This document shows positions 3,158 through 13,719 of a stretch of DNA of 35,878 nucleotides, piece after piece. The position numbers and the translations under genes were made by a program. The stretch is from a virus. Its lineage: Duplodnaviria; Heunggongvirae; Uroviricota; Caudoviricetes. Within the stretch, counting starts at the first letter, position 1. Every line of letters begins with the position of its first letter. The stretch lies in the IMG/VR virus record IMGVR_UViG_2703718854_000001; one strand, given 5' to 3'. A model generated the notes under the pieces. It did not search any database, was not told where the DNA came from, and saw only the letters and a program-made list of their open reading frames with translations.

Positions 3158-3382
3158 ATGCATACAGTTTCTGAAAATCAGTGCGGTAAATACGCATTAC
3201 TGCTGCAACAGGCCAGAACCGAAGCACAGGCCGATGCAGCGACGCGCTTTTCTTCTCATCTTGACGCCATGATTCGCCACATCACAAAGGCGGAGTTATC
3301 CCGCGTGGAGATAGTCGAGCTGCTCAGTCAGGAGTCGGAAAAATTTCACAACATCGGATTGTCTCGCGGGGAGGTGCTTTGA
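3158..3382 (+). CDS. Small early protein at the P2 orf80 position
   Basis: Position in the early operon; ATG at 3158 with GGAGAAAG upstream. Confidence 0.5.
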
Positions 3383-3684
3383 TGTCCTGTTCTCGTTCAG
3401 TTGTTTTACTGAACAATGCCTTAAAAATCGCCGTTATGAAAAATGGCGATTTGTCTCTTATTCAACTTGGTCTTGATAAAGAAAAACGCGAAATAACTGA
3501 ATCTGTTATCGCGATTTATCAGAGTGAATTAAACCTCCTGTCTGATGTGGTCAATTTACTTGTTAAACGCGCTGTATTTCACAAGCAAATTTCCTCCGTG
3601 GATGAACTGACGAAATTAACGACAGAAATCGCCAGCTATTGCGCTGATGAATTTAAAAAACTGAACGACAAAAGGAACTGGTAA
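3382..3684 (+). CDS. Small early protein at the P2 orf81 position
   Basis: Translationally coupled to the previous ORF; GGGGAGG Shine-Dalgarno. Confidence 0.55.
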   Translation: MSCSRSVVLLNNALKIAVMKNGDLSLIQLGLDKEKREITESVIAIYQSELNLLSDVVNLLVKRAVFHKQISSVDELTKLTTEIASYCADEFKKLNDKRNW

Positions 3685-3908: not shown

Positions 3909-4180
3909 GTATTCGTATTGAAATTGGCGAACGTTATGTCGTTACCAGTGACAGCTTTCAGTTTATTCTCCACGAGAAAAAGAGAGCGGAAAGCGGTAAA
4001 AACGCCGGTCAGGAATGGCTGGCGGTGGTTGGTTATTACCCGAAATTAAGCCAGCTCGTTTCCGGCCTGATGCATCACGATATTCTGACCGGAAGCGCAA
4101 AATCTTTTGCCGATTTAAACGTGCAGGTTGAGCAACTCAGCAGGCGTTGTTCAGAGGCTTTTGGCTCATATGGACGTTAA
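3905..4180 (+). CDS. Small early protein at the P2 orf83 position
   Basis: Position immediately upstream of A; overlapping start/stop. Confidence 0.55.
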   Translation: MSIRIEIGERYVVTSDSFQFILHEKKRAESGKNAGQEWLAVVGYYPKLSQLVSGLMHHDILTGSAKSFADLNVQVEQLSRRCSEAFGSYGR

Positions 4181-6458
4181 AGCCTCCGGGCGTTTTGTCC
4201 CTCCGTCAGCATTTGCCGCAGACACCGGTAAGACGTTTACCGGTGCTTATGCATGGAACGCGCCACGCGAGGCTGTCGGGCGCGAAAGACCCCTTACACG
4301 TGACGAGATGCGTCAGGTGCAAGGTGTTTTATCCACGATAAATCGCCTGCCTTATTTTTTGCGCTCGCTGTTTACTTCACGCTATGACTACATCCGGCGC
4401 AATAAAAGCCCGGTGCACGGGTTTTATTTCCTCACATCCACTTTTCAGCGTCGTTTATGGCCGCGTATTGAGCGTGTGAATCAGCGCCATGAAATGAACA
4501 CCGACGCGTCGTTGCTGTTTTTGGCAGAGCGTGACCACTATGCACGCCTGCCGGGAATGAATGACAAGGAGCTGAAAAAGTTTGCCGCCCGTATCTCATC
4601 GCAGCTTTTCATGATGTATGAGGAACTCTGCGATGCCTGGGTGGATGCGCATGGCGAAAAAGAATCGCTGTTTACGGATGAGGCGCAGGCTCACCTGTAT
4701 GGTCATGTTGCTGGCGCTGCACGTGCTTTCAATATTTCCCCTCTCTACTGGAAAAAATACCGTAAAGGGCAGATGACCACGAGGCAGGCATATTCTGCCA
4801 TTGCCCGTCTGTTTAACGATGAGTGGTGGACTCATCAGCTTAAAGGCCAGCGTATGCGTTGGCATGAGGCGTTACTGATTGCTGTCGGGGAGGTAAATAA
4901 AGACCGTTCACCTTATGCCAGTAAACATGCTATTCGTGATGTGCGTGCGCGCCGCCAGGCAAATCTGGAATTTCTTAAATCGTGTGACCTTGAAAACAGG
5001 GAAACCGGCGAACGCATCGACCTTATCAGTAAGGTGATGGGCAGTATTTCTAATCCAGAAATTCGCCGGATGGAGCTGATGAACACCATCGCCGGAATTG
5101 AGCGTTACGCCGCCGCAGAGGGTGATGTGGGGATGTTTATCACGCTGACCGCGCCGTCAAAGTATCACCCGACACGTCAGGTCGGAAAAGGCGAAAGTAA
5201 AACCGTCCAGCTTAATCACGGCTGGAACCATGAGGCATTTAATCCAAAGGATGCGCAGCGTTATCTCTGCCGTATCTGGAGCCTGATGCGCACGGCATTC
5301 AAGGATAATGATTTACAGGCCTACGGTTTGCGTGTCGTTGAGCCACACCACGACGGAACGCCGCACTGGCATATGATGCTTTTTTGTAATCCACGCCAGC
5401 GTAACCAGATTATTGAAATCATGCGTCGCTATGCGCTCAAAGAGGATGGCGACGAAAGAGGAGCCGCGCGAAACCGTTTTCAGGCAAAACACCTTAACCG
5501 GGGCGGTGCTGCGGGGTATATCGCGAAATACATCTCAAAAAACATCGATGGCTATGCACTGGATGGTCAGCTCGATAACGATACCGGCAGACCGCTGAAA
5601 GACACTGCTGCGGCTGTTACCGCATGGGCGTCAACGTGGCGCATCCCACAATTTAAAACGGTTGGTCTGCCGACAATGGGGGCTTACCGTGAACTACGCA
5701 AATTGCCTCGCGGCGTCAGCATTGCTGATGAGTTTGACGAGCGCGTCGAGGCTGCACGCGCCGCCGCAGACAGTGGTGATTTTGCGTTATATATCAGCGC
5801 GCAGGGTGGGGCAAATGTCCCGCGCGATTGTCAGACTGTCAGGGTCGCCCGTAGTCCGTCGGATGAAGTTAACGAGTACGAGGAAGAAGTCGAGAGAGTG
5901 GTCGGCATTTACGCGCCGCATCTCGGCGCGCGTCATATTCATATCACCAGAACGACGGACTGGCGCATTGTGCCGAAAGTTCCGGTCGTTGAGCCTTTGA
6001 CTTTAAAAAGCGGCATCGCCGCGCCTCGGAGTCCTGTCAATAACTGTGGAAAGCTCACCGGCGGTAATACTTCGTTACCGGTTCCCACGCCTTCTGAGCA
6101 CGCCGCAGCAGTGCTTAATCTGGTTGATGACGGTGTTATCGAATGGAATGACCCGGAGGTCGTGAGGACGCTCAGGGGTGCATTAAAACACGGACTGAGA
6201 AGACCAAACCGTCAGCAAAGAAACGGAAGCCCGTTAAAACCACATGAAATTGCGCCATCGGCCAGACTGACCCGGTCGGAACGAATGCAAATCACCCGTA
6301 TCCGCGTTGACCTTGCTCAGAACGGTATCAGGCCGCAGCGATGGGAGCTTGAGGCGCTGGCGCGTGGGGCAACCGTAAATTATGGCGGAAAAAAATTCAC
6401 GTATCTGGTTGCTAATGAGTGGTTCGGGTTTCAAGATGACGTGTCATTTTTCATATAA
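4170..6458 (+). CDS. A: Replication initiation protein A (rolling-circle nickase), about 762 aa
   Basis: Size and position match P2 A (761 aa); HWH and YIAKYISK motifs are typical of rolling-circle initiators; start taken at the in-frame ATG at 4170. Confidence 0.88.
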   Translation: MDVKASGRFVPPSAFAADTGKTFTGAYAWNAPREAVGRERPLTRDEMRQVQGVLSTINRLPYFLRSLFTSRYDYIRRNKSPVHGFYFLTSTFQRRLWPRIERVNQRHEMNTDASLLFLAERDHYARLPGMNDKELKKFAARISSQLFMMYEELCDAWVDAHGEKESLFTDEAQAHLYGHVAGAARAFNISPLYWKKYRKGQMTTRQAYSAIARLFNDEWWTHQLKGQRMRWHEALLIAVGEVNKDRSPYASKHAIRDVRARRQANLEFLKSCDLENRETGERIDLISKVMGSISNPEIRRMELMNTIAGIERYAAAEGDVGMFITLTAPSKYHPTRQVGKGESKTVQLNHGWNHEAFNPKDAQRYLCRIWSLMRTAFKDNDLQAYGLRVVEPHHDGTPHWHMMLFCNPRQRNQIIEIMRRYALKEDGDERGAARNRFQAKHLNRGGAAGYIAKYISKNIDGYALDGQLDNDTGRPLKDTAAAVTAWASTWRIPQFKTVGLPTMGAYRELRKLPRGVSIADEFDERVEAARAAADSGDFALYISAQGGANVPRDCQTVRVARSPSDEVNEYEEEVERVVGIYAPHLGARHIHITRTTDWRIVPKVPVVEPLTLKSGIAAPRSPVNNCGKLTGGNTSLPVPTPSEHAAAVLNLVDDGVIEWNDPEVVRTLRGALKHGLRRPNRQQRNGSPLKPHEIAPSARLTRSERMQITRIRVDLAQNGIRPQRWELEALARGATVNYGGKKFTYLVANEWFGFQDDVSFFI

Positions 6459-6535
6459 AACATTTCAAAATTCAATGTAATGAAAGCATATCGTATATCG
6501 CTTTAATATGTGTTATTCTTCTTGGTTGTTAATGT

Positions 6536-6563
6536 TTGATTTTATATGAAAAAATATTATATA
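6536..6563 (+). promoter_or_regulatory. Candidate sigma70 promoter for the RT locus (TTGATT, 16-nt spacer, TATATA)
   Basis: Sequence match only, in a very AT-rich segment where chance matches are common. Confidence 0.25.
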
Positions 6564-6619
6564 TAGAAAGATCAAATACAACGGTTTACTTGTTATGATG
6601 CAATTATTGGTTAGTTAGT

Positions 6620-6870
6620 GAGATACATCGCCATCAATTGGGTATTTTTTACCCGTGGAAAGTTAACACTTTCTACCGTTTACCCCGCGCAACGCCCCTG
6701 CCAGCGACAAGAGTCACAGGACCAGGTGGTATGGCGTATGGGAATTCGAACCCTTTGGGCGACAAAGGGTTCGTGGAGCAGGGAGCTAGTGCTGTTCAAT
6801 CTCATCCTTATGAGGGCGAACCATAGTGTTGGAGCAGACATACCGTTTGCACACTATGGGCATAAGGAGC
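6620..6870 (+). ncRNA. Candidate structured non-coding RNA or leader upstream of the RT operon (possible retron msr-msd)
   Basis: Perfect 11-bp hairpin at 6747-6773; 9-bp stem 6821-6829/6851-6859 nested in an 8-bp stem 6805-6812/6861-6868 that pairs with the downstream Shine-Dalgarno; the overlapping ORFs have no ribosome-binding site and look non-coding. Confidence 0.3.
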
Positions 6871-6875
6871 AAATC

Positions 6876-7031
6876 ATGAAGAATGATAAATTAACCAACG
6901 AACAGCAGGCGCAGAACAAGTCAAACCTGAAAAAGAGGGCTGGTTATGCTTGGGAATTATTCAAATGGGGTATTAGACTGTTTGATTTAGTCACTCGAGC
7001 ACTGGACTACTTAGAAGGGGGTGGTGAGTAA
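6876..7031 (+). CDS. Small protein (51 aa), first ORF of the RT operon
   Basis: ATG at 6876 with AAGGAG 6 nt upstream; hydrophilic N-terminus and amphipathic C-terminus; no recognisable domain. Confidence 0.35.
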   Translation: MKNDKLTNEQQAQNKSNLKKRAGYAWELFKWGIRLFDLVTRALDYLEGGGE

Positions 7032-7067
7032 TGCGTCCTCCCTAGTTTCAATAGCATGGAGTTGCCT

Positions 7068-7376
7068 ATGTTACATAAAGCCCTTCGTTTAATAAGGCAA
7101 TACCATAAAGAATCAATAGTTGAGTTATCTTCATCTTTAGGTATTCCAAAAGACAAAATAGTATCGCTTGAAAGCGGAGTTTGGTCACCGTCGATTGAAG
7201 TCTTAGAGCGTTACGCCTCCCATTTCGACATACCAGTATCCTCTTTAGTATTCTTTTCGGAATCATTAGGCACGCAAGGCCGTTTGTCTAAGCGATTGCG
7301 TTTAAATTTAGCCGGTAAAGTTCTGGATGTTCTGGAGTGGGTAAGTAATAAAAATGAAAAAACGGAAAAAGCTTAA
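7068..7376 (+). CDS. XRE-family HTH protein (about 102 aa) immediately upstream of, and overlapping, the RT gene
   Basis: Cro/C1-like HTH (SIVELSSSLGIPKDKIVSLESG); GGAG 6 nt upstream of the ATG at 7068 (alternative ATG at 7056); 3' end overlaps the RT start by 23 nt. Confidence 0.65.
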   Translation: MLHKALRLIRQYHKESIVELSSSLGIPKDKIVSLESGVWSPSIEVLERYASHFDIPVSSLVFFSESLGTQGRLSKRLRLNLAGKVLDVLEWVSNKNEKTEKA

Positions 7377-8304
7377 GGTTAATACTAAAAATAAATCTTA
7401 TGACATAATGGATTCGCCATTTTACAAACTCAAAAGTAAAAGAAAACTGGCGAATTTGCTTTGTGTTAGTCTTGAAGAATTATACTCTTTGAGAAAAGAT
7501 GAAGGAAACTATTCCGTTTTTGAGCAACTTTCTAAAAAAGGAAAAGCACGAAAAATACAAAAGCCTTTAGAAAAACTAGAACTTGTACATACACGAATTG
7601 CAAGTTTGTTATCACGGATTGCTTTGCCAGAATATCTGCACTCGGGGAAGAAGAAGTGCTCTAATGTGACGAATGCTAAAGCTCATCTTAATAATGAAAA
7701 GATGATGACAACAGATATTAAAGCTTTTTTTCCATCAACTACAAGAGGGATGATATTTTCTTTTTTCTTTTCGATGATGAAAATGTCATCTGATGTTGCT
7801 GATGTTTTGTCCCACATATGTACTTGTCATGACCGATTACCAACAGGTAGTCGCATCAGTATGCCGTTGGCATATTTTGCAAATTCAAGAATGTTTGGTG
7901 AAATATATCAACTTTGCCAAAAGTTACGAGTTAACATGACTGTTTATGTTGATGATCTCACTTTTTCAGGTGGTAACGTAAATCGATTGTTTTGCGCTGT
8001 AATTCGTAAGATCGTTAATAAGCATGGACATGTTATACACCCAACGAAAACAAAATTATATGCCAGAGATAAGCCTAAGTTGGTAACTGGAGTTATTGTA
8101 TTCGGTAATGCTTTAAAAGTTAGGAATGAGCAGCATTTTTTGATGGCTAGGGAAATAGATTATTGGAAAATAATTAAAGACGCCGAAAATGCGAGAGAAA
8201 CAATCATTGCCAAAAAGCTCTTTGGCCGTTTGCATTCAATGGGAGTGATTGAGCAACGTTACAAATCGAAGGTGCTTACTTTAAAGGCTAATACTGCAAA
8301 TTAA
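7354..8304 (+). CDS. Reverse transcriptase, retron-type (316 aa)
   Basis: YVDD active-site motif; NAKAH (NAxxH), DIKAFFPS, LPTGSxxSxxLA and a VTG motif (KLVTGVIVF) align block by block with the retron Ec86 RT recalled from memory; 316 aa is retron-sized; AT-rich cargo. Confidence 0.8.
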   Translation: MKKRKKLKVNTKNKSYDIMDSPFYKLKSKRKLANLLCVSLEELYSLRKDEGNYSVFEQLSKKGKARKIQKPLEKLELVHTRIASLLSRIALPEYLHSGKKKCSNVTNAKAHLNNEKMMTTDIKAFFPSTTRGMIFSFFFSMMKMSSDVADVLSHICTCHDRLPTGSRISMPLAYFANSRMFGEIYQLCQKLRVNMTVYVDDLTFSGGNVNRLFCAVIRKIVNKHGHVIHPTKTKLYARDKPKLVTGVIVFGNALKVRNEQHFLMAREIDYWKIIKDAENARETIIAKKLFGRLHSMGVIEQRYKSKVLTLKANTAN

Positions 8305-8427
8305 CATATTGAATGTATTGCATAAAAGCATCAATAATTAAAATGACTTGGCGTTAGTAACGCCGCAAGTGCAGGAATTTACTTTCGATGCAGGCGGCGT
8401 TGATTAGAAACCTCAGAAAGTAGTTAG

Positions 8428-8865
8428 CTATGAAGCTGACGTCACAAAATTAACGCCAAGAGTCAACAGGTTTGTCACTGCTCCAGCAATTACACCTGGA
8501 GTTCCGTCTTTTACTGCACTGATAATTTTATCACCCATCGTTTCATTACCGCCAAGTGCTTCGGGTTTTTTGTTGAGCACCGCGAGTGCTTTCTCGGTCA
8601 GGCGCACATCATGAAAACCGGTCTGATGGTCTGTTCCGTACAGAATATAGCCGTTTTCGCTTAGGAAAGTGAATGTGCCATCAACCACACTACGCAACTG
8701 ATTCAGTGCTTTCATTTCTGGTGAGTTAAGTTGGTCAAAGTAGTCATCAGGTAACGCGGCGTTAAATTTTTTGTAGGTGATGACTTGTGGTACAGGAAAG
8801 TTATCCCATAGCACCGCAAAGATTTCTGCCGTCTGTTGGTTGAATAATTCGAGATTTTTGGACAT
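8428..8865 (-). CDS. Hypothetical protein (145 aa) with a predicted C-terminal transmembrane anchor
   Basis: Good Shine-Dalgarno (GAAAGGGAA); C-terminal hydrophobic stretch GVIAGAVTNLLTLGVNFV; convergent with the RT gene. Confidence 0.55.
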   Translation of the reverse strand: MSKNLELFNQQTAEIFAVLWDNFPVPQVITYKKFNAALPDDYFDQLNSPEMKALNQLRSVVDGTFTFLSENGYILYGTDHQTGFHDVRLTEKALAVLNKKPEALGGNETMGDKIISAVKDGTPGVIAGAVTNLLTLGVNFVTSAS

Positions 8866-9196
8866 GCATAGTTCCCTTTCATCAATTAAAGACCCTTATG
8901 CCGACTGGGCAAAGAGGCTAACTGTAATGGCCTCAAATAACGACCTGAGCTCTCGCGAGGTGGATAGTTACACTGAAAAAATGGTTGAACAAGCCAGTAA
9001 AGATGAGCTTATGGTCGTTATAAAATACCTGTTAAATCACATCAGAATGAATAAATAAAATGATCTATATCAAGATGTTATCTCACATTTATGAAAGTCC
9101 GTGGACAACGATTTTTCTGCTAATTGTTGTCAGTACGTGCCTCAACAGTGTGATTGGTGCATTGCGCGGCCAGTGACAACTATAAAAATTGATCAG

Positions 9197-9224
9197 AACC
9201 GGCATCATGAATGCCGGTTTTTTT
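9197..9224 (+). terminator. Rho-independent terminator (9-bp GC-rich stem, T-run)
   Basis: aaccggcat-catga-atgccggtt followed by tttttt. Confidence 0.5.
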
Positions 9225-9382
9225 GTGCTTTTTCTGTGATATCCCCGTTTTTATCTGTGCATGCAATATGTGCATGGTTTTGCATGTGCCGGAGTTACAT
9301 GTTCTGGCCGTGCGTCCGCCAAGACTGGCGTGGCTCAAAAGCGGTATTGCAACTGCATTAAAACCGCCCCATGAAGCGGGCG

Positions 9383-9401
9383 GGCGAGGCGGGGAAAGCA
9401 C
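9383..9401. other. cos site: P2-type 19-nt cohesive-end sequence GGCGAGGCGGGGAAAGCAC
   Basis: Exact match to the P2 cohesive-end sequence as I recall it; lies between the old/tin-type region and Q, as in P2. Confidence 0.55.
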
Positions 9402-9545
9402 TGCGCGCAGCCCGTCAAGAATAAAAAACTCTCTTGCAGGTAGAAAACATTCTGTTAACATTTGTCTGGATGAAGTTTAAGTTAGAAATTTATGTTAATG
9501 AACTGATTGATACTTATGTTTTGTCAATAATTTAGGAATGTTAAG

Positions 9546-10682
9546 ATGACAAGCTATGTTACATGGGCAAATAAAGGTGGAATAGGTAAATCAACATTAT
9601 CTTTCCAATTGGCGTTAAAATACGCGAGATTAAACACGAATAAAAAAGTAATCATAATAGATATGAGCCCTCAGTGTGATGTCTCTAGAATGTTATTGGG
9701 GGGAGGGCATTTTAACGGTGAGCAAAAGATCTTGGATAGAATGACCTCTAATCCAAGGTTGACAATTTACCGGTATCTTGAGGCCTGTGTTAATGATGTT
9801 CCTTCTGGGAGGGGATGGCCTGATTCATTATCATACTTAATTGAACCTAATTCTTTTCGAGACGAAAACGCAGAAAAATTGCCTGATAATATTAGTATGG
9901 TCTGTGGAGATTTCGACTTAGAGAGGGTTACTCATAGTTTAGATAATTTGCCACAACCTCAACCAAGAGGCGGGCGTGTTCCGTCGGGTGCTCATTACTC
10001 AGCATATTTATTGCCACGCACTTTTCTACGGAAAATGGTGGAGGACTTTGAGCGCGAATACAGGGATGTGACAATTTTTATTGATACGGATCCATATTAT
10101 TCGGTAGTAACAACACATCTGGGGCTTCTGGCTGCAGACAGGTTGATTTCGGCATACTCTCCTTCATCTCAAGCAAGCCAGTATGCAGTATATCGTAGCT
10201 TAGAGTTTCTATACGATCCTAATTATGGACTGGTGCAAGAGGTTAATACACAGAGAGCAATATATGGTACCCCTTGGTTTGATAGTTTAAATAATATAAT
10301 TACAACACCGAATATATCTGTTGCAAATCTTTATATGGTAGTAAGTAACATGAATACGCCTCAGGCTGGAAGAGGACAACCTCCATACAGCCAACCCCAA
10401 AAACTACATAGACAATCGCAACAAGAAGTTATATCTAGAATTAATGACACATTAAGTAGTTTGGGGATCGCGCATGATTATGTTCATGACTATTTATGGG
10501 ATCTCAAGAGATTAGGTTTGATTTGTGATTATAATGGTTTTGATTTAGCAACAATTCAATTAGGGGAAAATTATGCGGAACCAAGTGATGATGGTAATTA
10601 TTATGTAAATACTACAGGTGGAACACCGATCCAATTATCATCCTATAATGCTAGGATCGAAACTGTTACATCAAAACTATAA
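9546..10682 (+). CDS. ParA/MinD-family P-loop ATPase with an unrecognised C-terminal extension of about 130 aa (378 aa)
   Basis: Deviant Walker A KGGIGKST; A' (IIIDMSPQ) and Walker B-like (IFIDTDP) motifs; AT-rich; no parB-like partner nearby. Confidence 0.7.
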   Translation: MTSYVTWANKGGIGKSTLSFQLALKYARLNTNKKVIIIDMSPQCDVSRMLLGGGHFNGEQKILDRMTSNPRLTIYRYLEACVNDVPSGRGWPDSLSYLIEPNSFRDENAEKLPDNISMVCGDFDLERVTHSLDNLPQPQPRGGRVPSGAHYSAYLLPRTFLRKMVEDFEREYRDVTIFIDTDPYYSVVTTHLGLLAADRLISAYSPSSQASQYAVYRSLEFLYDPNYGLVQEVNTQRAIYGTPWFDSLNNIITTPNISVANLYMVVSNMNTPQAGRGQPPYSQPQKLHRQSQQEVISRINDTLSSLGIAHDYVHDYLWDLKRLGLICDYNGFDLATIQLGENYAEPSDDGNYYVNTTGGTPIQLSSYNARIETVTSKL

Positions 10683-10754: not shown

Positions 10755-11774
10755 CTATAGGGTGTATTGTCTGAATTTTATTACATTCTGACCGAGCCAG
10801 CCGTTTATTTCCCGAATCCTGTCCTGTAACGGGATAAGCTCATTGCGGACAAAGACCTTTGCCACTTTCTCAATATCACCCAGCGCCCCGACGTTCTCCG
10901 GCTTGCCGCCCATCAACTGAAAGGGGATGCGGTGCGCGTCCAGCAGGTCTGCGGCGCTGGCTTTTTTGATATTAAAAAAATCATCCTTCGTTGCCACTTC
11001 ACTGAGCGGGATAATTTTAATGCCGTCGGCTTTCCCTTGTGGGGCATAGAGAAACAGGTTTTTAAAGTTGTTGCGGCCTTTCGACTTCACCATGTTTTCG
11101 CGGAGCATTTCGATATCGTTGCGATCCTGCACGGCATCGGTGACGTACATGATGTATCCGGCATGTGCGCCGTTTTCGTAATACTTGCGGCGGAACAGCG
11201 TGGCCGACTCATTCAGCCAGGCAGAGTTAAGGGCGCTGAGATATTCCGGCAGGCCGTACAGCTCCTGATTAATATCCGGCTCCAGCAGGTGAAACACGGA
11301 GCCGGGCGCGAAAGGTGTCGGCTCATGGAAGGACGGCACCCACCAGTAAACATCCTCTTCCACGCCACGGCGGGTATATTTTGCCGGTGAGGTTTCCAGT
11401 CTGATGACCTTACCGGTGGTGCTGTATCGCTTTTCCAGAAACGCATTACCGAACACCAGAAAATCCAGCACAAAGCGGCTGAAATCCTGCTGGGAAAGCC
11501 ACGGATGCGGGATAAATGTCGAGGCCAGAATATTACGTTTGACGTAAATCGGTGAGCTGTGATGCACGGCAGCACGCAGACTTTTTGCCAGACCGGTAAA
11601 GCTGACCGGTGGCTCATACCATCTGCCGTTACTGATGCACTCGACGTAATCCAGAATGTCACGACGGTCGAGTACCGGCACCGGCTCACCAAAGGTGAAT
11701 GCCTCCATTTTCGGGGCGCTGGCGGTCATTTTTTTTGCCGCAGGTTGCGGTGTTTTCCCTTTTTTCTTACTCAT
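10755..11774 (-). CDS. Q: Portal protein
   Basis: 339 aa at the position of P2 Q (344 aa); stop/start overlap with P. Confidence 0.88.
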   Translation of the reverse strand: MSKKKGKTPQPAAKKMTASAPKMEAFTFGEPVPVLDRRDILDYVECISNGRWYEPPVSFTGLAKSLRAAVHHSSPIYVKRNILASTFIPHPWLSQQDFSRFVLDFLVFGNAFLEKRYSTTGKVIRLETSPAKYTRRGVEEDVYWWVPSFHEPTPFAPGSVFHLLEPDINQELYGLPEYLSALNSAWLNESATLFRRKYYENGAHAGYIMYVTDAVQDRNDIEMLRENMVKSKGRNNFKNLFLYAPQGKADGIKIIPLSEVATKDDFFNIKKASAADLLDAHRIPFQLMGGKPENVGALGDIEKVAKVFVRNELIPLQDRIREINGWLGQNVIKFRQYTL

Positions 11775-13546
11775 CAGTAAAACTCCAGAATGGTGGATGT
11801 CAGCGGGGTGCTGATACCGGCGGTGAGTGGCTCATTTAACAGGGCGTGCATGGTCGCCCAGGCGAGGTCGGCGTGGCTGGCTTCCTCGCTGCGGCTGGCC
11901 TCATAGGTGGCGCTGCGTCCGCTGCTGGTCATGGTCTTGCGGATAGCCATGAACGAGCTGGTGATGTCGGTGGCGCTGACGTCATATTCCAGACAGCCAC
12001 GGCGGATAACGTCTTTTGCCTTGAGCACCATTGCGGTTTTCATTTCCGGCGTGTAGCGGATATCGCGCGCGGCGGGATAGAACGAGCGCACGAGCTGGAA
12101 CACGCCGACACCGAGGCCGGTGGCATCAATCCCGATGTATTCAACGTTATATTTTTCGGTGAGTTTGCGGATGGATTCCGCCTGGGTGGCAAAGTCCATG
12201 CCTTTCCACTGGTGACGCTCAAGTATTCTGAATTTGCCACCGGCCACCACCGGCGGTGCCAGCACCACGCATCCGGCGCTGTCGCCACGGTGTGACGGGT
12301 CGTAACCAATCCATACCGGGCGGGAGCCGAACGGATTGGCGGCAAACGGCGCATAGTCTTCCCATTCTTCCAGCGTGTCGACCATGCAGCGTTGCAGCTC
12401 CTCGAACGGGAACACCGACGCCTTGTCGTCAACAAATTCACACATGAACAGGTTTTTAAAATCGTCGGCGCTGTTTTCACGTTTGAGCTGCTCAATGTCG
12501 AACAGCGTGCAGCCACCTTTCAGGGCGTCCTCAATGGTGACAATCTGCCGCCACTGGCCGTCCGCACAGAGAAGCCCACCGGCAAGGGCGTTATGACTGA
12601 CGTCGATTTCCACGCGTTCGGCGGCGCTGGCGCGTCCCCGGTTGAACAGTTCACCTGACCAGAACGGGTAGGCGTCGTGCGCCAGCGTGGACGGGGTGGA
12701 GAAATAGGTCGAACGCAGGTGACTCTGTGAGGCCATACCTGATGCCACCTTACGCAGTACCTGAAAATTCGGGATCCAGAAAATCTCGTCGACGTACAGG
12801 TCGCCGTTATGGCTCTGTGCGGTGTTGGAGTTGGTGCCGAGAAAAATTAGTTTTGCGCCGTTATTGCCCAGGACAATCGGGTCACCGGTCAGGTCAACGT
12901 CAACCAGACGGGCAAAGGCGATGATGTATTCGCGGAACACATACGCCTGCGTTTTACTGGCCGACAGAAAAATCTGGTTATGGCCGGTTTTCAGGGCGCG
13001 CAGCAGCGCCTCGCGGGAAAAATAAAACGTTGCGCCAATCTGGCGGGATTTCAGTATATCGCGGATGCGGTGCTCAAGCCCGGCGCGATACCAGTGCAAC
13101 TGATAGTCGAAAGACTGCTCAAAGAAAATCTGCTCCAGCTTTTCGATGGCTTCGTCACTGAAAAAATTCTTTTTCGGTTTGCGACGCCCGCCTTTGTTGC
13201 GGTTAGCGACGTTCGGATTAAGGTCTGCCTCGTTGCCGGTCTGACTGTAGCGGTTGACCCGCGCCAGTCGTTCAATCTGGCGTCCCAGCAGGTCAATTTC
13301 CTTGAAGTCACCGCCGGTTTTCTGCGGTTTGATGATGAGCTGGGTCAGCCGCGCTTCCAGGCTCATTTCGACACGGCTGATGGGGGCAACGCTGTCCCAG
13401 CCGTCGCGCTGTTTCCAGCTCTGTACCGTCGGGCGTTTCATCTGCAACATGGCGGCAATCTGCGGCACGGAAAACCCCTGCCAGTACAGCAGCGCCGCCT
13501 GCCGACGCGGGTCGTGTAAAAGAGTGGTGTCTGTGGTGATGGTCAT
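11774..13546 (-). CDS. P: Terminase large (ATPase) subunit, 590 aa
   Basis: Length equals P2 P when started at the ATG with a GAGG Shine-Dalgarno; divergent from O. Confidence 0.88.
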   Translation of the reverse strand: MTITTDTTLLHDPRRQAALLYWQGFSVPQIAAMLQMKRPTVQSWKQRDGWDSVAPISRVEMSLEARLTQLIIKPQKTGGDFKEIDLLGRQIERLARVNRYSQTGNEADLNPNVANRNKGGRRKPKKNFFSDEAIEKLEQIFFEQSFDYQLHWYRAGLEHRIRDILKSRQIGATFYFSREALLRALKTGHNQIFLSASKTQAYVFREYIIAFARLVDVDLTGDPIVLGNNGAKLIFLGTNSNTAQSHNGDLYVDEIFWIPNFQVLRKVASGMASQSHLRSTYFSTPSTLAHDAYPFWSGELFNRGRASAAERVEIDVSHNALAGGLLCADGQWRQIVTIEDALKGGCTLFDIEQLKRENSADDFKNLFMCEFVDDKASVFPFEELQRCMVDTLEEWEDYAPFAANPFGSRPVWIGYDPSHRGDSAGCVVLAPPVVAGGKFRILERHQWKGMDFATQAESIRKLTEKYNVEYIGIDATGLGVGVFQLVRSFYPAARDIRYTPEMKTAMVLKAKDVIRRGCLEYDVSATDITSSFMAIRKTMTSSGRSATYEASRSEEASHADLAWATMHALLNEPLTAGISTPLTSTILEFY

Positions 13547-13719
13547 GAATACCTCGCCGTGATGAATACACGGCAAGGCTACTGAGTCGCGCCCCGCGAT
13601 TCGCTAAGGTGCTGTTGTGTCAGTGATAAGCCATCCGGGACTGATGGCGGAGGATGCGCATCGTCGGGAAACTGATGCCGACATGTGACTCCTCTAATCA
13701 CTATTCAGGACTCCTGACA

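Follow-up and report, generated by a model that had tools for sequence, protein, structure and literature searches.

What does a phage gain from the genes that it carries directly before its cohesive end, and do they belong to the reverse transcriptase (RT) locus beside them? The question is raised by a P2-type prophage, IMG/VR record IMGVR_UViG_2703718854_000001, analysed here over its whole length of 35,878 nucleotides, which is called the window in what follows. In the window, a gene for a protein of 145 amino acids (orf145) is read from the minus strand, and its start codon overlaps that of a gene for a protein of 64 amino acids (orf64) read from the plus strand. An initial annotation, made from the letters alone, took the larger protein for a tail-anchored product built like an abortive-infection (Abi) effector, possibly serving the RT, and the smaller one for its possible antidote. 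The answer that we favour, and to which we give a moderate probability, is another one: the two genes, together with a third, orf33, form the conserved right flank of a defence hotspot next to the cohesive end (cos) in one sub-lineage of P2-like phages, apart from the neighbouring retron, where orf145 would be a soluble MarR-like protein and orf33 the only credible membrane product of the block. The features on which the argument rests are the following.

8428-8865, minus strand: orf145, 145 aa, PHROG 2266; predicted winged helix with conserved N- and C-terminal helices
8864-9058, plus strand: orf64, 64 aa, PHROG 2454; predicted three-helix protein
9075-9176, plus strand: orf33, 33 codons, putative single-pass membrane peptide MLSHIYESPWTTIFLLIVVSTCLNSVIGALRGQ; alternative in-frame ATG at 9060
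8340-8401, minus strand: GC-rich hairpin or hairpins with a T run 3' of orf145; likely terminator of the leftward transcript
9195-9228, plus strand: intrinsic terminator that ends the orf64-orf33 transcript; 11-bp stem, then a T run
9383-9401, no strand: P2-type cos, sequence GGCGAGGCGGGGAAAGCAC

Three genes in two transcription units

The comparison is based on 62 related loci, gathered from phage records, Escherichia coli genomes, one-genome-per-species contigs and IMG/VR. The ATG codons of orf145 and orf64 share two nucleotides within the tetranucleotide CATG (8863-8866), and each of the 51 related loci with both genes shows this head-to-head register. PHROG 2266 matches residues 1-142 of orf145 (2.4e-61) and PHROG 2454 residues 1-64 of orf64 (7.3e-39), that is, each protein over essentially its full length. 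The ratio of nonsynonymous to synonymous substitution rates (dN/dS) is 0.08 for orf145, with the differences concentrated at third codon positions. For orf64 the median ratio is 0.20, to be compared with about 1.1-1.4 for the shifted frames; third positions are again enriched in differences, and the frame is the only one free of stop codons in 48 of 48 unique sequences. From the low ratios, the sole open frame and the PHROG matches it follows that orf145 and orf64, the small plus-strand reading frame included, are both genuine protein-coding genes. In the 62 loci orf64 is represented by 44 distinct proteins of 63-64 aa in which the motif DLSSRE is invariant, and its homologues are limited to prophages of Enterobacterales. 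AlphaFold gives it three helices (model confidence, pLDDT, about 78), arranged in a three-helix bundle to which no informative structural match was obtained.

The genes are arranged in two back-to-back transcription units, a leftward one with orf145 and a rightward one with orf64 and orf33. The ribosome-binding site of orf145 had been called strong; a Shine-Dalgarno-like motif, AAGGGAA, is indeed present 7 nt 5' of the ATG, with a strength that is moderate. On the 3' side of orf145 a terminator scan gives a match at 8364-8350, and a longer hairpin is conserved in the window and in loci L001, L003, L021 and L025, and is also kept in derivatives from which orf145 has been deleted. A strong terminator closes the rightward unit, some 190 nt short of cos. 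This terminator is conserved across all loci, and the homologous place in phage 186 is annotated 'terminator'; it had been expected directly after orf64, and while the terminator itself is there at 9195-9221, orf33 lies in between. The folding of the RNA over 9040-9228 has a z score of -2.2, due mainly to the terminator, and no compensatory changes were seen in the internal hairpin of this segment when aligned sequences were judged by eye. An Rfam scan of 6300-9600 gave no match. Of 5,426 complete E. coli genomes, 79 have the orf145 region and 94 that of orf64-orf33, in every case as a single chromosomal copy.

The third gene became apparent from the 137 nt between the stop codon of orf64 and the terminator (9059-9196), which are highly conserved and confined to phages with orf64; in phage 186 the similarity to the window does not begin before the terminator, and in P2 it is limited to the core of cos. 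The start of orf33 at 9075 lies 16 nt past the end of orf64, and the in-frame ATG that the window has at 9060 lies 1 nt past the orf64 stop; at most other loci an AAGGA motif stands in place of that ATG. Of 54 unique homologous sequences, 35 have the reading frame unbroken, and the ratio of nonsynonymous to synonymous polymorphism (pN/pS) is 0.33 in frame as against 0.61 and 1.76 out of frame. The encoded peptide, shorter than 50 aa, has a hydrophobic helix with a Kyte-Doolittle mean of 2.18 and a Hessa sum of +0.24, and these two values together make orf33 a credible single-pass membrane peptide. No family in Pfam or PHROG matches it, and among the records examined it is annotated once, as QBQ71544.1 of a Klebsiella phage.

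Three further observations concern the place of orf33. In loci L047 and L051 it is replaced by an inserted gene for 77 aa (MHHVPFDIPKHKTHSVKLMAVVNRLQQIM...), which resembles a protein of 71-78 aa (cluster 50) that adjoins orf145 in other loci and may be a small gene that has been duplicated or is mobile. In L037-L042 its ATG has been lost and there is a frameshift. In L078, from E. coli O157:H7 FRIK944, RefSeq places an 89-aa 'hypothetical protein' on the minus strand at 3291-3560, across the orf33, terminator and cos region, and leaves the 33-aa reading frame unannotated; the 89-aa call is probably a mis-call.

The orf145 protein and its C-terminal tail

The proposal of a tail anchor can be evaluated directly. 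The last 23 residues of the enterobacterial orf145 proteins have no charge, are predicted to be helical, and are rich in Gly, Thr and Asn. Their best 19-residue Kyte-Doolittle mean is 1.52, which falls short of the usual cut-off of 1.6 for a spanning segment, and their summed value on the Hessa scale is +4.3 kcal/mol, compared with +0.24 for orf33; the AlphaFold pLDDT is below 50 over this tail. When 53 distant homologues are considered (21-47% identity, all within PHROG 2266), only one attains 1.6, the median number of charged residues in the tail is four, and in 52 of the 53 the tail helix is charged and amphipathic. The tail sequence of orf145 itself is strongly conserved, in contrast to what is seen for a generic anchor. 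Judged from these sequences, the C-terminal helix is most likely too polar to be a membrane helix, so that neither the proposed anchor nor the likeness to Abi effectors that was built on it is retained.

What the protein may be instead is indicated by its predicted structure. The AlphaFold model is confident over residues 11-100 and has the order a1, winged helix, a5, a6, which is the layout of the MarR fold. In close and distant alignments alike, conservation is highest over residues 1-26 and 110-122 and lowest over the helix-turn-helix (HTH) segment, residues 27-72. With the MarR/SlyA regulators orf145 shares the size (about 140-150 aa in that family) and the helix order, and sub-threshold hidden Markov model (HMM) alignments of orf145 to MarR-family structures extend through the C-terminal helices, which belong, with the N-terminal one, to the best conserved parts of orf145. 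On the model, orf145 is most likely a soluble, cytoplasmic, MarR-like winged-helix protein. Its size and helix order together with the sub-threshold alignments lead us to read the tail as a dimer-interface helix or as an amphipathic one used for interaction. The predicted dimer interface would be made up of the N-terminal helix and both C-terminal ones, and what looked like a hydrophobic tail would be buried there, or serve as an amphipathic helix for dimerisation or interaction, rather than anchor the protein. Such a protein could act alone, with its variable HTH face binding nucleic acid or a protein of host or phage, and would be a regulator or a host-directed accessory factor rather than a killing effector. 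Within the block, orf33 would then be the one product with a credible activity at the membrane, and orf64 its upstream partner, possibly by translational coupling.

A number of results weigh against this picture and have to be set beside it. Profile searches of the PDB with three profiles gave nothing significant (best E-values 0.13-0.8), and neither by sequence nor by structure was a characterised family matched significantly; the HMMs of MarR structures in the PDB gave E-values of 0.15-1.4, and the Pfam MarR models were unmatched. An alignment by hhalign to E. coli MarR had a probability near 1%. Neither orf145 nor its family matched a family in Pfam, NCBIfam or PADLOC. The PHROG 2266 family is acidic, with a median pI of 5.1, which is unusual among DNA-binding regulators and therefore weakens a simple DNA-binding interpretation; this and the missing significant matches to Pfam and PDB MarR entries are what set orf145 apart from the MarR/SlyA regulators. 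The proposed dimer model derives from topology and conservation. The enterobacterial tail is, after all, uncharged, with a Kyte-Doolittle mean not far from the cut-off, and orf145 may associate weakly or peripherally with the membrane. Then, orf33 is broken in about one third of the variants, where its start is lost or the gene is frameshifted, deleted or replaced, and orf64 is intact there. Lastly, no convincing promoter was found for either transcription unit by sigma-70 consensus, by a position-weight scan or by a search for the Ogr-type TGT-N12-ACA.

Searches for function among known families added little. When all reading frames were scanned against Pfam, NCBIfam, PADLOC and PHROG, the block obtained nothing beyond PHROG memberships, which are uninformative; the PADLOC 2.0 defence models matched neither orf145 nor orf64 nor the orf145 family; and a literature search by protein accession and PHROG number gave no characterisation of the orf145 or orf64 proteins, which appear only in 'hypothetical' listings in Rousset 2022.

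Independence from orf64 and from the retron

Is orf145 one half of a pair? If so, the two genes should be inherited together, and this is not what is observed. In 11 IMG/VR loci (L052-L062) and in the isolated phages SW9 (L072) and SI22, orf64 is kept while orf145 is reduced to its first 17-19 codons. The deletion is a clean internal one that begins near codon 18 and extends to the stop codon, and leaves 52 nt upstream of orf64 as well as the 3' hairpin in place; the retained stretch is roughly as long as a promoter for orf64 would be. The occurrence of the same clean deletion in these loci and isolated phages means that orf145 is dispensable for a viable phage. A DinI gene is found beside the deletion scar in L052-L062 and in SW9. 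Where both genes are present their histories differ: in pairwise comparison with L003, the synonymous divergence pS is 0.23 for orf145 and only 0.05 for orf64, whereas in comparison with L002 the nonsynonymous divergence pN is 0.05 for orf145 and 0.29 for orf64. From these discordant values follows that orf145 and orf64 are independently recombining neighbours and do not form a co-evolving pair. The idea of a divergent toxin and antidote is thus not supported.

The same conclusion is reached from the wider family. A profile search that covered 1.84 billion representatives gave 707 clusters matching the orf145 profile, nearly all of about 125-160 aa and aligned end to end. In several Mu-like contigs, distant homologues (25-31% identity) are early-operon genes that directly precede gemA-mor; others are found in the early region of the Nitratiruptor phage NrS-1, in prophages of Helicobacter pullorum, in a GC-rich P2-like prophage between its tail module and its lysogeny module, and in a small chromosomal islet of Agarivorans. 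In Vibrio parahaemolyticus (L065, 6862-7565) the homologue is a single-gene integron cassette between attC repeats of about 120 nt, in an array that holds at least 18 cassettes. No homologue of orf64 was found near these distant homologues. Since the gene occurs in such single-gene contexts, the orf145-type protein most likely functions on its own, and since several phages place it with early lytic genes, it is a poor fit to a suicide effector expressed from the prophage. In the several Mu-like contigs the homologues belong to what corresponds to the 'semi-essential early region' of Mu (gemA/mor) and are co-transcribed with the early genes; orf145 of the P2-like phages differs from them in its place at the end of the genome, in being read from the other strand than the early operon, and in having a terminator of its own.

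Two apparent partners of distant homologues were examined and rejected. A neighbour of 175 aa that two of them seemed to share is not homologous between the two. In the GC-rich P2-like prophage L066 (6782-7432), a homologue 30% identical to orf145 lies head-to-head (CATATG) with a 72-aa reading frame on the opposite strand; this frame has no relation to orf64 and is possibly a shadow frame of GC-rich DNA.

The remaining candidate partner is the RT. The neighbourhood of the block contains the following features.

4128-6458: replication gene A (gpA)
6876-8304, plus strand: complete type VI retron, with SP toxin (6876-7031, 51 aa), HTH (7056-7376) and RT (7354-8304)
10755-13576, minus strand: portal gene Q and terminase gene P; gpQ is 10755-11774

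PADLOC identifies the HTH gene as HTH_VI (7.7e-31) and the RT gene as RT_VI (3.9e-105), and the SP reading frame matches PHROG 15287 at 8e-34. Type VI retrons have been described as self-contained operons of noncoding RNA (ncRNA), SP, HTH and RT, in which the toxic effector is SP, a small protein whose C-terminal core is hydrophobic, neutralised by HTH in one of two systems, Retron-Sen3 (bioRxiv 10.1101/2025.10.22.683967; 10.64898/2026.04.27.721009). With respect to this operon orf145 is convergent with the RT gene, on the opposite strand, and separated from it by the terminator hairpin, so that it stands outside the retron. An RT_VI cluster is present in 14 of the 51 loci with orf145 and absent in the other 37, where the neighbours are instead DinI, a GNAT acetyltransferase, Fic/PDC-S04, PDC-M48A/B, a DUF262-type GmrSD/HEC-06 nuclease or a Sel1-repeat protein. 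As the retron has its own SP toxin, and as the RT accompanies orf145 in only 14 of 51 loci, orf145 is no RT effector but a conserved gene beside which the cargo varies. The initial annotation had left the choice between an RT effector and an independent 'moron', and it is the second that stands: orf145, being neither structural nor housekeeping, is an independent accessory gene. The block as a whole is independent of the retron and a dispensable accessory.

Side by side with these results, two details of the cargo may be recorded. Upstream of SP, the low-GC segment 6459-6875 is the expected place of the ncRNA or hybrid RNA described for Retron-Vpa2 and Retron-Sen3, and no Rfam model matches it. 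In L037-L042 the cargo slot 3' of orf145 holds PDC-M48B, of the metallo-beta-lactamase fold (1e-100), and PDC-M48A, a membrane protein (1e-50).

The left end of the window is occupied by integrase, C repressor and cox. The cos sequence found at 9383-9401 is the exact point at which linear records start or stop, as those of 186, SEN1, Midge and P2-like phages do. The orf145-orf64 block lies beside this cos, within the interval from gpA to gpQ, and cos together with the two flanking genes therefore puts it in the old/tin position, as had been proposed for the window. The gpA-gpQ interval is a hotspot of anti-phage systems, in which P2 has old and tin (Rousset et al. 2022, PMC9122126), and supplementary file 6 of that study, which gives gene arrangements of the P2 hotspot, includes the proteins of the block, as WP_000042038 and WP_024168670, labelled 'hypothetical' only (PMC9122126). 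In the window the GC content drops from about 0.55 in the phage backbone to 0.33-0.46 over the interval. Between cos and the portal gene there is a single gene (9546-10682, plus strand), for a ParA/MinD-like P-loop ATPase of 378 aa, which matches Pfam AAA_31 at 4e-10 and PHROG 164, 'ParA-like partition protein'; no ParB-like partner was seen in the window. A 'putative plasmid partitioning system' has been noted in about a quarter of P2-like phages (Rousset 2022, PMC9122126), and the ATPase may be that system.

Competing explanations and the place of the block

How do other explanations fare against the reading of the block as a conserved hotspot flank with a soluble orf145? That orf145 is a tail-anchored membrane toxin or Abi effector, either that of the retron or a stand-alone one, with orf64 as its divergent antidote, had in its favour the uncharged, predicted-helical last 23 residues of the enterobacterial proteins, the overlapping start codons and the location in a defence hotspot (PMC9122126). 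It is nevertheless very unlikely, given hydrophobicity values of 1.52 and +4.3 kcal/mol, a tail that is charged and amphipathic in all but one of the distant homologues and conserved in sequence as a generic anchor is not, an SP toxin that the retron already has, 37 loci from which the RT is missing, an orf64 that survives without orf145 and whose alleles are shuffled relative to it, and homologues that sit within the early lytic operons of Mu-like phages. A local role for orf145 as a MarR-like transcription factor, acting on the shared 5' region and controlling orf64-orf33, its own promoter or co-oriented cargo, can be argued from the winged-helix fold with its MarR-like size and topology and from the two genes standing head-to-head. 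As there is no intergenic DNA between them, each promoter would have to lie inside the other gene, and what the deletion derivatives keep of orf145 is precisely its first 52 nt, a length that a promoter might have; genes for Fic, PDC-M48B, GmrSD and Sel1 proteins sometimes follow orf145 on the same strand. Such a role is unlikely all the same: orf64-orf33 is kept intact where orf145 is deleted, the homologues in the integron cassette and the Mu-like early operons have no such partner to control, the family is acidic, the conserved terminator hairpin separates orf145 from most of the downstream cargo, and the scans found neither an operator-like repeat nor a promoter.

The right-hand side of the block gives the likeliest of the alternatives, namely that orf64-orf33, rather than orf145, is the functional unit, a small membrane-peptide module for superinfection exclusion, abortive infection or a function like that of a toxin-antitoxin pair, in which orf33 would perturb the membrane under the control of orf64. 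This is possible, if still doubtful. It agrees with a strong predicted transmembrane helix under purifying selection, with the spacing of 16 nt after orf64 (1 nt after its stop for the in-frame ATG of the window), with the restriction of 9059-9196 to phages that have orf64, and with the frequent inactivation of orf33 under constant retention of orf64, a pattern typical of toxin loss with the antitoxin retained. It is met by the lack of homology to known toxin or immunity families in database searches, by the generic character of the three-helix fold of orf64, and by continued selection on orf64 where orf33 is dead, which means that orf64 has another role too. For orf145 it has also to be asked if it could be a counter-defence or host-takeover protein that inhibits a host factor, for instance a nucleoid-associated protein or a system of the SMC/kleisin type. 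The PHROG 2266 proteins are small and acidic, Mu-like phages and NrS-1 encode them within their early lytic operons, and they occur as a mobile single-gene cassette; the annotators of phage Midge, moreover, reported HHpred similarity to the T7 gp5.5/5.7 fusion, and the T7 annotation calls gp5.5 an H-NS antagonist. That similarity was not reproduced here (hhalign probability below 1%), and there is no experimental or database link to anti-defence families, so that this proposal must be judged quite improbable. An equally small chance is given to the view that the three genes together are an undescribed conflict system encoded by the phage and directed at other phages or at the host, for example with orf33 as effector, orf64 as controller and PHROG 2266, with no fewer than 700 clusters, as a new and widespread counter-defence or sensor family common to P2-like phages, Mu-like phages and integron cassettes.

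The preferred reading, in which the block is a flank and not itself cargo, is brought out by comparison with known occupants of the hotspot. With old and tin of P2 the block shares the position between gpA and cos, the low GC content relative to the backbone and the status of non-essential accessory genes, and in both cases the neighbouring cargo varies among phages and consists mostly of known or candidate defence systems. The block proteins differ from Old, an ATPase-TOPRIM nuclease, and from Tin in having no relation to them by sequence or by fold, and orf145, orf64 and orf33 are not variable cargo but a conserved flank common to phages with different cargo. The SP/HTH pair of the type VI retrons offers an analogy for orf64-orf33 only, as a tiny protein with a hydrophobic C-terminus beside a small helical protein in the same hotspot; the order is reversed, with the helical protein first, and there is neither homology nor an RT or ncRNA. 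To a pair of this kind orf145 does not belong.

What was observed in the window by the initial annotation was thus largely right, and its interpretation largely wrong. For the biology of these phages this means, in the first place, that a false lead has been removed: the type VI retron is complete without orf145, and the description of orf145 as a tail-anchored Abi effector should not be propagated. In its place stands a conserved and dispensable flank of three genes beside the cos-proximal hotspot of P2-like phages, which may be a recombination anchor for the exchange of cargo. One of the three, orf33, is newly exposed as a gene; of the records examined, those of E. coli in RefSeq leave it unannotated, and so do the phage records with a single exception. 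PHROG 2266, finally, emerges as a broad family of probably MarR-like phage proteins, spread over P2-like phages, Mu-like phages and integron cassettes, and as a reasonable target for a screen for defence and anti-defence functions.

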